From: a virus
Reading direction: 5' to 3' (one strand)
IMG/VR virus record: IMGVR_UViG_3300019378_001956
DNA length: 22,591 nucleotides
A program made the position numbers and the translations under genes. The notes under the pieces were generated by a model. It saw only the letters and a list, made by a program, of their open reading frames with translations. It did no database searches and had not been told where the DNA came from. Of the stretch, positions 5,776 to 14,760 are shown piece after piece; within the stretch, counting starts at the first letter, position 1, and each line of letters opens with the position of its first letter.

Positions 5776-5970
5776 TTATTTTTTCTTTGGTACTTTATTC
5801 ATCTCTTTATGTAGGTCTGCTCGACCTTTTGTGATAAATAATGTTTGAGCTAAGGTTAAATCGCCCAAGTTATCACATAAATGATATCCGCAGTAATCTA
5901 ACCATATTATATTTTTAGCTTCATTCGTCTTCAGGAAAGTCTTTAACTTCTTTTTCCAAGTCATCATCAT
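5776..5970 (-). CDS. Tail assembly chaperone extension (gpT-like), probably made by +1 frameshift from the upstream chaperone
   Basis: Overlaps the chaperone 3' end by 50 nt, lies directly upstream of TMP, is in the +1 frame and has no clear RBS. Confidence 0.7.
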   Translation of the reverse strand: MMMTWKKKLKTFLKTNEAKNIIWLDYCGYHLCDNLGDLTLAQTLFITKGRADLHKEMNKVPKKK

Positions 5971-6370
5971 CTAAACCAGATATAATTCTGACTTGATCAT
6001 AAATTTCATCAAAAACACGCCTGCCCATAGCCTCTACTTCATCACGAGTAAATGGATCATCTTTATAAACATCATTATCCAGACTTAAAAATACTGCCTC
6101 AATTTTAGCTTTAGCAGAAGCTTTTCCAGTTTCTTTTACATTGATTTTTGCTTGAGCTTCCATTTGAGATTGAATTTGTTTTCTTCTACTTCTATTTTTT
6201 GCTCTTTCAGTAGTGGTGTATTCCCCAATAGCTTCATTTTCTATTTCTTCTATTTTGTTCCATTCACCATTACTCAAAGGTCTTAAGGCGACAGTATCGT
6301 CTTTTGATTTGATATATCTTTCTTTAGTTTCATTTATTCCATTTAATATTTGGGATTTAGTTAACACCAT
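5921..6370 (-). CDS. Tail assembly chaperone (gpG-like)
   Basis: 149 aa, acidic and helical, between major tail protein and TMP; GGAGGT RBS upstream. Confidence 0.8.
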   Translation of the reverse strand: MVLTKSQILNGINETKERYIKSKDDTVALRPLSNGEWNKIEEIENEAIGEYTTTERAKNRSRRKQIQSQMEAQAKINVKETGKASAKAKIEAVFLSLDNDVYKDDPFTRDEVEAMGRRVFDEIYDQVRIISGLDDDDLEKEVKDFPEDE

Positions 6371-6436: not shown

Positions 6437-6685
6437 CTATTGAGGTTCTAAAGTAATTTCTAATGTTTCAGTACTAGAAGTGATTATTACCTCTTGACTG
6501 TAAGTTACGTAACCTGTTTTTGTTGCAGTTACAGTAACTGTACCTACAGGAACATCATGTAATGTACATCCACCTTGACTACCAGTAGTGCCTGTAATTT
6601 GGCCTATTGCAACTTCAACTTGACTTACAGGGTTTGTTCCATCAGTTACGCTTACTGCTAAATCATCAATAGTTTCAGGATTCAC
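6437..6685 (-). CDS. Ig-like (PEGA/carboxypeptidase-regulatory-like) domain; probable +1 frameshift extension of the major tail protein
   Basis: 82 aa, VSVTDGTNPV...TGTTGSQGGCTL.DVPVG...VTATKTGYVTY pattern; GTG start one nt after the MTP stop; the +1 frame is open from 5 codons earlier (CTC CCA GTA ACT GAG GTG). Confidence 0.75.
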   Translation of the reverse strand: MNPETIDDLAVSVTDGTNPVSQVEVAIGQITGTTGSQGGCTLHDVPVGTVTVTATKTGYVTYSQEVIITSSTETLEITLEPQ

Positions 6686-6686
6686 C

Positions 6687-7721
6687 TCAGTTACTGGGAG
6701 CTATCTTAGGCTGGTTATTGACTAATTTTACATACATATCTGTAGTAACTTCTGTAGTATTATCTGCGAGCCTAACTTTTTCAGAACCAAGTGTGGCCAT
6801 GTTTAAGGTTGCTTCTACATCATCAATACCGGATGAATCAAATTCTGCTAACAATGTACATTTAGGGAATTTAATAGTTAAACCCAAACCAGGGTATTCA
6901 CATAATTCCACATTAAGTTCTAATGGAACTTGCAATATTTTACATTTAGCAGGCTCAAGAAGATCTACATCACCATACCGTGCATCTAATATTGCTCTTA
7001 CAGTTTCTTGAGTTAATGTAGTTACAATACTGATGCTGTTTTCTCTTTTATTTGCTTTAGCTTGTCCTTGAGGATGTCTATAACCAAAACCAATTGTTTT
7101 ATCGACATCATGATTGTTATTTCCTTCAAGAGTGAAACTTGTTTGTACACCGGCAGGATCATTACCATTCAATTTTAAGCTAACATCATAGAACATGATG
7201 AATAAATCATTTATTAACTCTTCAGCTCTTTCATATTCATTTTCATCTTCTAGAATATCAGCAAGTTCAGTTTTATAGATGAAATCTGCTCCAAGAGTCA
7301 TATCTTCAGAGGATACTTCGAGTTTCATTGAATCAACAAGTAATCCAAATAGATAGAAAACTAATTCATCATTGACTGATACTCCTCTGAAACTTTTTAA
7401 TAATTTAGATTCTCCACCCCAAAATTCATGAGTATTTTTATTATTATTTCCGGCTGTGAATTTATAGTTATCTAAGAATCCATAGAAGTAATGTCCAAGT
7501 ATTTGAAGGTTTGCTGAAGTTTCAATACTTCCACTAGGTTTTATTACGCCTGCTCTTGCTTTTTGATTCATTCTTGAACCGAAACTTTTGGTTACTGGTT
7601 CGTCATTGAGTTTAAAATCCATGCTGTCTACTTCATGGTCAAAATCTAAGTCAAACTCTGCTTTTTCTTTATCCTCCCCATAGACGGCTTCGGGTTCCAA
7701 ACCAAATACTCTACAACTCAT
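6687..7721 (-). CDS. Major tail (tube) protein
   Basis: 344 aa, acidic and beta-rich, FGLEPEAVYGE N-terminal motif typical of tail tube proteins; located between the tail terminator and chaperones; GGTGA RBS. Confidence 0.8.
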   Translation of the reverse strand: MSCRVFGLEPEAVYGEDKEKAEFDLDFDHEVDSMDFKLNDEPVTKSFGSRMNQKARAGVIKPSGSIETSANLQILGHYFYGFLDNYKFTAGNNNKNTHEFWGGESKLLKSFRGVSVNDELVFYLFGLLVDSMKLEVSSEDMTLGADFIYKTELADILEDENEYERAEELINDLFIMFYDVSLKLNGNDPAGVQTSFTLEGNNNHDVDKTIGFGYRHPQGQAKANKRENSISIVTTLTQETVRAILDARYGDVDLLEPAKCKILQVPLELNVELCEYPGLGLTIKFPKCTLLAEFDSSGIDDVEATLNMATLGSEKVRLADNTTEVTTDMYVKLVNNQPKIAPSN

Positions 7722-9099: not shown

Positions 9100-9651
9100 T
9101 TATTCGTTTGTGATAGATACATAAATTCCTGCTGAAGTTGTGCCTGCATCAGTATATAACGGGTAGATTGTACCGTTTGTTTGAGCATCACTTGTAATAT
9201 AGAATTTTTGACCTACAAATGATTCTTCAGGACTATTGGTTAATACTTCAACTTCAGTATAACCACCAGATACTACTCCAGTAGTTTTTACTGTTCCACT
9301 ACCCCATTCAGTTTCTCCTTGAGCATCACCATAACTAGTGAATGCATAATTTACTGTTTGTGGTGTAGGATTTGATTCTTCAAGTACAATGCTTAATGAA
9401 CTTGTTTCACTATTTACAGTTAAAGTACTTTCATAGTCAACATAACCAGATTTAGATGCTACAACTTCATATTGTCCTTCAGGAACATTGCTTATTGTGC
9501 ATCCTCCAGCACTACCTGTTTTTCCAGTGTACTCATTCTCACCATCAGATAATGTTACATCAACATTTCCTATTGGATCTGTTCCATCTGTAACACTTAC
9601 ACTAATGTTATGAGTAGTGGCAGGTGTTGGTGATGGAGGGATTAAGCTTCC
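9100..9651 (-). CDS. Start-codon-less 183-codon ORF: Pro-rich linker + Ig-like domain + second beta-rich domain; probable -1 frameshift extension of the major capsid protein (absent from ORF track)
   Basis: Manually translated GSLIPPSPTPATTHNISVSVTDGTDPIGNV...GIYVSITNE*; frame open 9696-9100 with no in-frame ATG/GTG/TTG; overlaps the MCP stop in the -1 frame; exactly fills the gap to the next gene's RBS. Confidence 0.85.
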   Translation of the reverse strand, partial: GSLIPPSPTPATTHNISVSVTDGTDPIGNVDVTLSDGENEYTGKTGSAGGCTISNVPEGQYEVVASKSGYVDYESTLTVNSETSSLSIVLEESNPTPQTVNYAFTSYGDAQGETEWGSGTVKTTGVVSGGYTEVEVLTNSPEESFVGQKFYITSDAQTNGTIYPLYTDAGTTSAGIYVSITNE

Positions 9652-10649
9652 TTTAACCAGGCTAAACCAATTGCATCTTCTTCTACAAATTGTACATCAG
9701 CATACATAGTAGAAGCAATATCCCATACATTAGCTCTTAAGTTAAAAGCAGATTCAACGATAATTCCTTCAGGGTCAGTTAACCATTGAATATTCTCTTT
9801 ATGAGTTAAAATTACTGGTTTTTTAGTGAAACCATTCATAGGATTACTGAAACTAGGAACTGCGAATAAATGCATATCTTCAATTACAGGTTCACCAGTA
9901 CTGGAAATATAAGCATTCATATCTAATTTATCATGATTCCATGCAATGTATCTGTAAGCAGCAGTAACAAGTTTGGATGGGGCAAACATTGCCAATCCCC
10001 CATCATTTTTATAAACATCAGGGAACTCATCCAAGAAATGATATATTTCTTGTATTGGATTGGAATCATCGGCAGTTAAATCAATTTCTTCATTGTTTAA
10101 ATCAGCATCAGATGATGCTTTTTTAAGAATACCATCAACAACTTTATAACCAGTAGAAACATCAGATTCAGAACTGGATTTATCTCCATAAACAAGAACT
10201 CTTTCTAATGCTCTACCATTTGCTTGAGCAAACATTTCAGTTAAAGTATTCATGAATTTTTGACCTTCAATACTGTCTTTCATTACAGTACGATGAACAC
10301 CAGTTAATGCACGGAGTTCTTCAGCATCAAAACTCCTGTCAGTGAAATTAGGTTCTTGAGAATCAGATAATACTTGAGGAGTACCTGAGATTCTACCTGC
10401 TTCTAATTCAACGTTAAAACGGATTTTATCTACTTGTCTTTTATGATTAGTTGAAGTAATTCTTTTAGTTTTTTCAAGAAATACTGCATTGTCTTCTAAG
10501 TGTCTTATGTAAGTGTCAGATTTTTCTGCTTGTAAAACACCATTATTTAATTTACCTTCACCTTGGCCGATATCAACAAATTTGATTACAAATTTTTCTC
10601 CAAGGTCTACTTTTTGTTTGATTTCATTTTCTACTATCTGAATTGACAT
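9642..10649 (-). CDS. Major capsid protein (HK97 fold, PBSX XkdG-like)
   Basis: 335 aa after protease/scaffold; GVLQAEKSDTYI, KDSIEGQKF and ALERVLVYGD motifs resemble XkdG-type capsid proteins; GGTGA RBS. Confidence 0.9.
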   Translation of the reverse strand: MSIQIVENEIKQKVDLGEKFVIKFVDIGQGEGKLNNGVLQAEKSDTYIRHLEDNAVFLEKTKRITSTNHKRQVDKIRFNVELEAGRISGTPQVLSDSQEPNFTDRSFDAEELRALTGVHRTVMKDSIEGQKFMNTLTEMFAQANGRALERVLVYGDKSSSESDVSTGYKVVDGILKKASSDADLNNEEIDLTADDSNPIQEIYHFLDEFPDVYKNDGGLAMFAPSKLVTAAYRYIAWNHDKLDMNAYISSTGEPVIEDMHLFAVPSFSNPMNGFTKKPVILTHKENIQWLTDPEGIIVESAFNLRANVWDIASTMYADVQFVEEDAIGLAWLKEA

Positions 10650-13116: not shown

Positions 13117-14760
13117 TTATAACAATTCCCAATGCGCAAGATATTCTGATTCCTCTTTAATAAGTTGTAAATCAATATTTTTATCCAACAAAACCTCATA
13201 TTCCCATCTTGTATATGTTACTCCTTCAATATATAATATTTTTGTTCCTTTAGAAATCACAATATAATTTACATAATCCCCATATTCTTCAGGTTTAACA
13301 TTTTCTGAAAGTGATGTTGATAAACAAGCATCAGAGTGATAGATTCCATCTTCAGCACGGTTAGACATAGGTTCTTTTTGTCTTCTAACAACGACCAAAT
13401 CTTCTTCTAAAACTTTGCCTTTTTCAAAAATATCATTTAATATTTTTAATGATTTATCAAAACTCATATAATATTGAGGGTGGTAAAATATTAGTTTTAA
13501 CCATTTAATAGAATATTCTTTCTTTATCTCATTTAATTTAGAATCGTCAATATTAGCTATTTTTCTTAAGTATTCATTCAATATGGAAAATCCCTTACCA
13601 GAATATAATTTAATAAATTTATATTCATCTTTTGTTAATTCATCCTTTGTGATACCATATTTTATTTCAAATGTAGTTCTAGCAGACTTAGTTTCTTCAA
13701 CACCATAAACTGTTTTATCACCTATTTTAACTGCTTTATTTTTATCTTTTTCAAAAGTTTCATGTAAATTATCAAGTTCAAATTTTGTGTAATCTATTTT
13801 TGAATTTTGTTTTTGGGGTTTAATTTTACTGGTTACTTTTTCACTGACGGATTTGATTTTTGATTTGACAGTTTTTACCGGTTTTTTAACAGAATTTGTA
13901 ACTTTATTAATCATATCATTATTATTTTTTGATTTATTTGATTTTTTGGATTTTCTAGTTTGAGTAGTACTTTTCTTACCTGAACCTCTAATGTCGGATG
14001 GGGGTCTGTTACTGTAGCTTAACCAGCATCGGCAATTGGCTACGTTTTCTGCTCCACCGTTTAAATCTCCAGGATACATCATCCTTGCAGGATAAGAACC
14101 ATAAATATCAAATGTTTCATCAATAGGGACAGATTCGATAAATTTAGCTTTATGCCAAACACGTGTACGTTTAGTACGGCCATTATTCCAAGATTTATAT
14201 TGGTATCCATCATAGATTGCTTTTATCCAGCTTAAGTTACATTCGTTAGTATGAAATGAGTCACGAATAATATTTTTTATTCTTTTTTGTGCATGTTCAC
14301 CATATTCGGATTTTAGCTTTTCTGTTAATTCAGCTTCAGAGAGATTACCTAAATTCTTAGTATTTATATAATCTTCAATTTTACCTTGTAAATTAGGTAT
14401 TTCTTCTCGAATACGATTACCTAGAATAAACTGATATCTATTTGATATGTTGGATACTGCTGCTTCAACTGCTTTTTCTGGAATTCCATAGCTAATACGT
14501 TTTGTATCATTTTTTAGGTTAGTGTCAATTATCTTCTCAACATTCCTGTTTACTGTTGATTTTTTTATTGGATCACTAGTTCCAGTTACAGCATCTTCAA
14601 TTACAGCATCGATTATTTTATCTTGAAAAGTAGCTGCTTGACTAGCTGCACGGTTAATATTTTTATACTTGTATTGCAAGTGTATATCATCTTTCAATAC
14701 AAGTACTTCATGTAATCTTTGTGCTTTTAAGGCATATTCTAGTATTTCTCTATTAGTCAT
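13117..14760 (-). CDS. MuF (SPP1 gp7-like) minor head protein fused to C-terminal VIP2-type ADP-ribosyltransferase
   Basis: MuF motifs (RVWH, VPIDETF, MMYPGD, ENVANCRC) to about aa 290; Lys-rich linker; ART motifs LYSGKGFSILNEYLRK, VVVR459, CLS481TS483 and E520-Y-E522-VLL. Confidence 0.88.
   Translation of the reverse strand: MTNREILEYALKAQRLHEVLVLKDDIHLQYKYKNINRAASQAATFQDKIIDAVIEDAVTGTSDPIKKSTVNRNVEKIIDTNLKNDTKRISYGIPEKAVEAAVSNISNRYQFILGNRIREEIPNLQGKIEDYINTKNLGNLSEAELTEKLKSEYGEHAQKRIKNIIRDSFHTNECNLSWIKAIYDGYQYKSWNNGRTKRTRVWHKAKFIESVPIDETFDIYGSYPARMMYPGDLNGGAENVANCRCWLSYSNRPPSDIRGSGKKSTTQTRKSKKSNKSKNNNDMINKVTNSVKKPVKTVKSKIKSVSEKVTSKIKPQKQNSKIDYTKFELDNLHETFEKDKNKAVKIGDKTVYGVEETKSARTTFEIKYGITKDELTKDEYKFIKLYSGKGFSILNEYLRKIANIDDSKLNEIKKEYSIKWLKLIFYHPQYYMSFDKSLKILNDIFEKGKVLEEDLVVVRRQKEPMSNRAEDGIYHSDACLSTSLSENVKPEEYGDYVNYIVISKGTKILYIEGVTYTRWEYEVLLDKNIDLQLIKEESEYLAHWELL

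Follow-up and report, generated by a model that had tools for sequence, protein, structure and literature searches.

The major capsid protein gene of a tailed virus of Methanobrevibacter very probably undergoes -1 ribosomal frameshifting at the tetramer A_AAG, which, judging from comparative sequence data, would yield a fusion of the capsid protein with an immunoglobulin (Ig)-like domain and a second β domain, called domain 2 below. The gene lies in a stretch of 22,591 nucleotides (nt), IMG/VR virus record IMGVR_UViG_3300019378_001956, which was analysed at its full length and is referred to as the window. We reached this mechanism independently, but it had already been predicted for the family in 2024. 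According to the prediction of Baquero et al. (2024, Nat Commun 15:7702; PMC11375127), most 'Usuviridae' capsid genes carry a programmed -1 frameshift site, 'A AAG GAA', by which a fraction of the capsid proteins would gain a C-terminal Ig-like domain; these authors also described a direct fusion in one of ten viruses (vir272). The window is a further member with a longer, two-domain extension, and what is added here is the two-domain form, the distribution of domain 2, the observations on codon usage and tRNA-Lys, and the mishandling of the frame by gene callers. The features at the end of the capsid gene are as follows.

9642-10649, minus strand: major capsid protein gene, HK97 type, 335 amino acids (aa), zero frame (from phrog_1623, Pfam Phage_capsid, and identity to MSTV1 and vir075)
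9100-9696, minus strand: -1 frame, open from stop to stop, 198 codons (from reading frames, shuffles, and the ratio of nonsynonymous to synonymous substitution rates, dN/dS)
9651-9103, minus strand, with its stop at 9102-9100: predicted post-shift translated part of the -1 frame, 183 aa
9651-9657, minus strand: candidate -1 shift site G_TTA_AAG, with the conserved core A_AAG at 9654-9651 (from invariance in 11 aligned frameshift-type loci)

The frame behind the capsid gene

By homology and gene order, the window represents the structural module of a tailed Methanobrevibacter virus of the MSTV1-like ('Usuviridae') type. Its capsid protein matched the 'virion structural protein' family phrog_1623 (E 2e-50) and Pfam Phage_capsid (E 6e-05, slightly under the family cut-off), and tblastn gave identities of 58.6% to the annotated capsid protein of MSTV1 (100% of the protein aligned) and 62.7% to that of the M. 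gottschalkii virus vir075 (BK068243). The order of the head module, namely protease, scaffold, capsid protein, adaptor and tail tube, is common to the window, MSTV1 and vir075. The capsid gene ends in ...GCC TGG TTA AAG GAA GCT TAA, with the stop TAA at 9644-9642, and is followed by an apparent gap of 550 bp.

The first-pass annotation, made from the letters of the window alone, had described this gap as a start-less open frame overlapping the end of the capsid gene in -1, and on re-reading both the coordinates and the frames were found correct. The frame overlaps the last 17 sense codons of the capsid gene, where it reads GTT AAA GGA AGC TTA ATC CCT CCA..., and its 198 codons include no ATG, GTG or TTG, near-cognates being the only candidates, for example CTG (codon 13) and ATC (codon 19). 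When the 594 nt were shuffled, none of 20,000 shuffles was still open in the -1 frame. Pairwise comparison by the Nei-Gojobori method gave dN/dS values of 0.24-0.38 in eight of ten pairs, with dS up to 1.9; against L020, the closest relative, the ratio was 0.24 for the whole -1 frame, 0.29 for the first domain and 0.20 for domain 2. By these measures the -1 frame evolves as a coding sequence under purifying selection, and the 550-bp 'gap' is coding sequence.

Conservation of the layout and a natural in-frame fusion

Related loci were sought by a scan of IMG/VR, a scan of one genome per species and two protein look-ups, and came from the MSTV1 isolate genome, vir075, IMG/VR contigs and metagenome-assembled genomes (MAGs) of Methanobrevibacter. 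The identical -1 layout was found in 24 of them, and in all 24 the capsid gene ends in [T/A/G]TA AAG GAA GC[A/T] TAA. Across 11 aligned frameshift-type loci no variation was seen in the 14 bases TAAAGGAAGCWTAA at the capsid gene end, while the preceding codons varied at synonymous as well as non-synonymous positions. The TTAAAG site with its -1 overlap, noted earlier in the window, is thus kept in 24 of 24 relatives of this layout, TA AAG being the invariant core. In MSTV1 an unannotated gap of 291 nt 3' of the capsid gene proved to be a start-less -1 frame for a homologous Ig-like domain; in vir075 the homologous frame has been annotated as a hypothetical protein of 95 aa, starting at an ATG that is a chance product of GCA TGG. 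The two-domain extension of the window recurs in L020 (capsid protein 90% identical), L064/L065 and L067, behind an identical site each time.

One homologue carries the domain in a different manner. In L021, from a Methanobrevibacter MAG, the capsid protein is 68% identical to that of the window and the Ig domain is fused to it in frame, making a protein of 438 aa. Its junction ...LAWLIEGSASTPE... (LAWLIEGSAST) is without the AAAG motif, and its 'GS' lines up with the GS found immediately after the predicted shift in every other locus (LAWLK/GS); in the window the predicted trans-frame junction is GSLIPPSPTPATTHNISV... directly after ...AWLK. From this fusion it is clear that the domain functions when covalently attached to the C terminus of the capsid protein; most lineages would attach it to some subunits only.

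An in-frame fusion among the homologues had been named earlier as a finding that would speak against frameshifting, since it would imply an indel in the window. Such a fusion exists, once, in L021, but the implied indel is not borne out: the -1 layout recurs in two dozen independently assembled sequences, an isolate genome among them. The same data bear on the reading in which the frame is not expressed at all and is either a sequencing or assembly indel or the decaying remnant of a former in-frame fusion. L021 does hold the in-frame version that such a reading calls for; however, 24 independent assemblies carry the same offset and the same site, the frame has stayed open over dS >1 with dN/dS of about 0.2-0.4, 0 of 20,000 shuffles stayed open, and both domains are modelled by AlphaFold2 with a predicted local distance difference test score (pLDDT) of 96. 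We consider an unexpressed frame hardly credible and, as far as sequence comparison can judge, effectively refuted by these comparative data.

Starts available to the -1 frame

Two codons ahead of AAA the -1 frame reads ATG in loci of the vir075 group and TTG in L004 and L064. The window and L020 have CTG at this place, and members of the MSTV1 group CAT or CGT. Hence no normal start codon, which by the first-pass annotation would have counted against frameshifting, is conserved among the homologues. The variable codon tracks the third base of the capsid Ala codon, or a Trp/Tyr change, and because it simply follows that third base no start codon is under selection. No ribosome-binding site of the GGAGGT or GGTGA type was found before it, unlike the real genes of the window.

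These observations weigh on the most serious alternative, namely that translation of the -1 frame begins at a weak or non-canonical start codon, such as CTG at 9660-9658 or ATC/TTA just past the capsid stop, and gives a free decoration protein of about 185 aa held non-covalently on the capsid. The ATG of the vir075 type stands two codons before AAA and gives the 95-aa protein annotated in GenBank, TTG (L004/L064) and CTG (window/L020) are at the same place, and AAGGAAG resembles the ribosome-binding core AGGAGG with one mismatch. Moreover, other methanogen viruses encode stand-alone domain 2 or Ig-plus-domain 2 proteins with normal starts, in one case directly after an unrelated SU10-type capsid gene. 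But the MSTV1 group has CAT or CGT at this codon and no start in the whole frame, the position follows a synonymous base of the capsid gene, and the ribosome-binding site is missing as described; the stand-alone proteins possess an extra N-terminal anchor peptide of about 40 aa which this frame lacks, and in L021 the domain is covalently fused to the capsid protein. Thus we regard a free protein as improbable, and prefer the fusion by -1 frameshifting.

Gene callers, for their part, give the -1 frame varying starts, either at internal Met codons or at out-of-frame upstream codons, in the public protein collection. One such call, P0003 (208 aa), begins MGYCFYYVCW... at a point upstream of the bounding stop of the frame in the window; hence a near-identical copy without this stop must exist. 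The first 26 codons of P0003 before AAA were considered as coding sequence and rejected, as they begin 10 codons upstream of the bounding -1-frame stop. A start of this type is possible solely in the variant copy and is not conserved.

The shift site and the proposed mechanism

In the vir075-type loci the two frames overlap by 7 codons only, and because they overlap nowhere else the frame switch must fall within these codons, where A_AAG is the sole slippery motif. It could be argued that the frames are joined by some other route, such as slippage of RNA polymerase, hopping or a +2 shift, or a -1 slip elsewhere in the overlap; the shift site is non-canonical, and GAAGCWTAA after AAG is also invariant, which might suggest a role for the nearby stop codon. 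However, the longest homopolymer is A3, far below known transcriptional slippage, the 7-codon overlap contains no further repetitive motif, dual coding (KEA and stop in the zero frame, KGS in the -1 frame) already explains why GAAGCW is invariant, and the GS of the L021 fusion aligns with a shift at or before GGA. A route of this kind is, in our judgement, still less likely than a free protein.

The data presented here show the open frame, the conservation of this frame and the selection on it, the absence of any conserved start, the natural fusion in L021 and the folds of the encoded domains; the slip itself, its exact codon and efficiency, the entry of the product into virions and any binding function are inferred. 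Most ribosomes would stop at TAA 9644-9642 and release the capsid protein of 335 aa. In a minority, whose size would depend on the efficiency of the site, the tRNA-Lys on the rare AAG at 9653-9651 would slip back one base and re-pair with AAA at 9654-9652, and the slipped ribosomes would read on in the -1 frame, GGA AGC and so forth, to the stop at 9102-9100. The predicted product, 516 aa long, would begin with the capsid protein up to K333 and continue through a Pro/Thr linker and a transthyretin-like Ig-like domain to a β domain of about 85 aa. Such extended subunits would co-assemble in the capsid, so that some capsomers would show both domains outside. The slip heptamer G_TTA_AAG had been placed at 9657-9651 by the first-pass annotation, and its position is correct, as is the size of about 516 aa given for the trans-frame product (333 + 183 = 516); the proposal that a fraction of the capsid proteins are made as fusions by -1 recoding draws support from the layout of the 24 loci, the selection on the frame, the lack of a conserved start and the L021 fusion.

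The A_AAG tetramer is a classic -1 site of bacteria, for which (G_UU)A_AAG, A_CGA_AAG of Bacillus subtilis cdd and G_CGA_AAG of IS1222 are documented, and its shiftiness in E. coli goes with a single tRNA-Lys(UUU) for both Lys codons (PMC5009743). In the genes of the window (5334 codons) Lys is encoded by 42 AAG as against 354 AAA codons, 396 in all, and in-frame NNA_AAG occurs 10 times where 16 would be expected, once in the capsid gene. No tRNA genes were found in the window. Two of the Methanobrevibacter MAGs in which related viruses reside as proviruses (G001 and G002, holding L021 and L023) possess tRNA-Lys(UUU) and no tRNA-Lys(CUU) among their 30-31 tRNA genes. A tRNA-Lys similarity search over 16 sampled Methanobrevibacter genomes recovered a tRNA-Lys(CUU) gene in 4 and none in 12, the MAGs being incomplete. 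The tRNA-Lys(UUU)-only argument is not universal, and we treat it as a lead, not a result. As side observations, tRNA-Glu(UUC) was the sole tRNA-Glu found in G001 and G002, and tRNA-Lys(CUU) adjoins tRNA-Gln(CUG) in two of the four genomes having it.

A predicted RNA structure downstream of the site was considered as a stimulator.

9583-9637, minus strand: predicted RNA hairpin with closing helix UCCAUC/GAUGGA, possible stimulator (from the minimum free energy, MFE, fold)

The hairpin begins 13 nt 3' of AAG in the window, where a stretch of 91 nt has an MFE of -21 kcal/mol (z -2.9). A comparable closing helix, UCCA(UC) with (GA)UGGA of the conserved TDG codons, is present in the MFE fold of 8 of the 11 lineages, 11-13 nt after AAG. 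We do not claim the hairpin as a stimulator; on this modelling it is possible, as a candidate only.

Several points count against frameshifting at this site, and have to be set beside the evidence above. The site does not conform to the canonical X_XXY_YYZ heptamer, being G_TTA_AAG here and C_ATA_AAG or C_GTA_AAG in the MSTV1 group; re-pairing is confined to the A-site tetramer A_AAG, and re-pairing in the P site (TTA to GTT) would be poor. The genes of the window hold nine further in-frame NNA_AAG, and because of these the tetramer alone cannot be a strong signal. The hairpin z-scores range from -1.1 to -3.0 across lineages, being weak (-1.1 to -1.7) in lineages other than that of the window, its spacing of 11-13 nt is long compared with the canonical 5-9 nt, RNAalifold returned no consensus structure for 10 lineages, and covariation is impossible in the 3' arm because that arm is fixed by the protein sequence (TDG codons). 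G019, a MAG that hosts a frameshift-type provirus, has a second tRNA-Lys-like gene whose anticodon was not read. Two pairs gave high dN/dS values, 0.82 for window/L004 and 1.48 for window/MSTV1, which we take as fast divergence of a surface domain together with unreliable (small or saturated) dS, and which are still a caveat. The published prediction is based on sequence inspection and AlphaFold models, and the paper reports neither mass spectrometry nor sodium dodecyl sulfate polyacrylamide gel electrophoresis (PMC11375127). For a later vesicle proteome of M. smithii, the viral Orc1/Cdc6 protein was reported as the only viral protein in all three replicates, and no virion proteins were reported.

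Domains of the extension

The post-shift sequence divides into a linker and two domains.

9607-9651, minus strand: Pro/Ser/Thr-rich linker GSLIPPSPTPATTHN (sequence and length vary by lineage; first-block pLDDT 86)
9382-9606, minus strand: domain 1, CarboxypepD_reg/PEGA, a transthyretin-like Ig-like β sandwich (from Pfam PF13620, AlphaFold2 and Foldseek)
9103-9357, minus strand: domain 2, unnamed β domain of about 85 aa, TVNYAFTSYGDAQGETEWG...GIYVSITNE (from AlphaFold2, 169 clusters and dN/dS)

AlphaFold2, run on the 183-aa extension with an alignment of 47 sequences, returned a short linker and two all-β domains at a mean pLDDT of 96. Residues 31-105 of the frame matched Pfam CarboxypepD_reg (PF13620) with E 2e-10 and 41.3 bits against a cut-off of 32.3, PEGA matched the domain 1 region (to residue 108) with 1.7e-07, and domain 1 can be aligned with the extensions of MSTV1 and vir075. 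Foldseek matched domain 1 to CnaB2 and to transthyretin-like domains of carboxypeptidases N, D and M, the template modelling (TM) scores by target for N and D reaching up to 0.77. The Ig-like PEGA/carboxypeptidase-regulatory-type domain suggested by the first-pass annotation is thereby confirmed, above the Pfam cut-off and in its fold. The second β-rich domain of about 85 aa, which it could not name, also holds: modelled alone, domain 2 (frame residues 114-198) reached pLDDT 96.3 and a predicted TM score of 0.84, and no Pfam match was obtained for the domain itself or for 10 relatives. The role in adhesion that had been given to the extension, on the other hand, found no evidence here.

Searches for the fold of domain 2 gave no convincing solved structure. 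The best match of Foldseek in the PDB had E 0.3, VIA-align wide reached a best Z of 5.3, under the usual noise level, and the Atlas, searched by shape and by features, returned unnamed clusters only. Matches to herpesvirus gB fragments, microtubule inner proteins, Tudor/SH3-like barrels and LolA were weak and scattered, and none was assigned. These failed searches do not prove that the fold is new.

By sequence, domain 2 has relatives in 169 representative clusters at E<=0.001. It occurs as a single copy in proteins of about 125 aa that begin with a peptide of about 40 aa, in tandem copies, behind CarboxypepD_reg domains, and in giant host proteins of 2,000-4,600 aa; P0122 (2453 aa), the only giant protein scanned, contains Big_3_5 and PMP repeats as well. 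P0037 (L147 5001-5399, 132 aa) is a domain 2 protein of another methanogen virus encoded directly after an unrelated SU10-type capsid gene, and this place is the usual one for a head decoration protein. P0116 and P0114 (420-520 aa, with domain 2) were considered as in-frame capsid fusions and rejected, as BLASTP against the capsid protein found nothing. In a further setting, P0009 (L149 4093-4719) has a tandem pair of domain 2 on an integrase-bearing element, next to a protein with faint matches to Pfam PMBR (pseudomurein-binding repeats).

Tail genes and other genes of the window

A second CarboxypepD_reg-like Ig domain is encoded at 6437-6700 (minus strand), in the +1 frame behind the tail tube gene at 6687-7721 (minus strand). 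The two frames overlap by 3 codons only (ATA GCT CCC AGT AAC TGA), and CCC is rare, accounting for 12 of the 5334 codons. The +1 layout is kept in the IMG/VR loci L025, L026 and L060; in L029 and L030 the tail tube gene ends in ...TCC CCC TAA with a +1 frame, like the CCC_UGA of Listeria phage PSA, and the Ig domain is fused in frame to the tail tube in L028, L061/L062, vir075 and MSTV1. The tail tube Ig frame might instead begin on its own, at GTG 6685 in the window or at an ATG in L029.

The frame at 5776-5970 (minus strand) overlaps the tail assembly chaperone gene at 5921-6370 (minus strand), in the usual G/GT arrangement but in +1 (or -2), not -1; the -1 frame of the chaperone gene meets TAA at once, and AAA_G and TTT_C are possible +1 sites. 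Upstream of the capsid gene, the MuF-like minor capsid gene at 13117-14760 (minus strand) has a long C-terminal extension; in the related virus of L147 the corresponding 1-1145 gave Phage_Mu_F plus a faint match to an ADP-ribosyltransferase toxin.

In other methanogen viruses the tail tube gene itself ends in sites of the GTT AAA type (TTA AAG GAG TAA or CCA AAG GGA GAT TAA), and a -1 frame of 50-68 codons follows.

L031, 2511-2717: tail tube -1 frame
L052, 2523-2675: tail tube -1 frame
L053, 2231-2383: tail tube -1 frame

The motif N(S/T)xNS(I/V)xxLSVGxI and an acidic tail are common to these three frames. The gene ends suggest that A_AAG_G may be a recurrent -1 device in methanogen viruses, including at the tail tube gene ends of unrelated ones.

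Implications

The value of the window lies mostly in annotation, since the 'gap' behind the capsid gene is coding and is mis-started by gene callers. To our knowledge recoding is poorly documented in archaea; the Sulfolobus fucosidase gene is an exception, and the other cases known to us are predictions, for example in tail chaperone genes of haloarchaeal viruses. With this virus family, a simple and conserved tetramer site becomes available in the methanogens that dominate human and animal guts, and the cultivable MSTV1 could give protein-level proof of -1 frameshifting in a methanogen virus. Domain 2, being widespread and unnamed, merits the definition of a family, and may bear on surface binding by gut archaeal viruses and by the adhesin-like proteins of their hosts.

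We also put forward, as a tentative idea that has less going for it than against it, that the level of decoration is set by the tRNA-Lys repertoire of the host, and that domain 2 is an undescribed fold serving viruses and hosts as a portable module for surface display or adhesion. If so, AAG would be intrinsically shift-prone in hosts with tRNA-Lys(UUU) only, and hosts with tRNA-Lys(CUU) would give barer capsids. Domain 2 would then be common to gut methanogen viruses and to the giant adhesin-like proteins of their hosts, and in the viruses it would be attached by frameshift, by fusion or as a free decoration protein.

Comparison with known systems

Ig-like extensions of capsid or tail proteins made by frameshift are known from T3 gp10, Lactobacillus phage A2 and Listeria phages A118, A500 and PSA, the shift site of PSA being CCC_UGA (PMC5009743). 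As predicted for the window, a minority of the major virion subunits there gain an Ig-like domain when ribosomes change frame a few codons short of the stop; both head and tail proteins of one phage may be involved, in -1 or +1, and in-frame and out-of-frame relatives coexist. In phage A2 the shift occurs at C_CCA_AAA. These phages differ in having bacterial hosts and shifts shown at the protein level, whereas the virus of the window has an archaeal host and is known from its sequence alone. The T7 pair gp10A/gp10B is similar in that a -1 shift near the end of the capsid gene makes a minor, longer capsid protein, but its extension is short and not Ig-like (PMC5009743).

With respect to the site, G_TTA_AAG of the window is identical letter for letter to the bacterial (G_UU)A_AAG, and in both one tRNA-Lys slips, or would slip, from AAG to AAA without good re-pairing in the P site. 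The bacterial A_AAG sites, however, were measured in bacteria with a single hypermodified tRNA-Lys(UUU), and often have an upstream Shine-Dalgarno-like element or a downstream structure, while the host here is archaeal and the stimulator a candidate.

The closest counterpart is the frameshift predicted for the 'Usuviridae'. The capsid protein is homologous (59% identity to MSTV1), the gene ends alike in A AAG GAA GCN TAA, the -1 frame encodes a homologous Ig-like domain, and a direct fusion occurs once in each set, in vir272 there and in L021 here (PMC11375127). The window differs in that its extension is about twice as long, with domain 2 after the Ig-like domain, and in that its tail tube Ig-like domain is encoded in the +1 frame, whereas MSTV1 and vir075 have that domain in frame with the tail tube.

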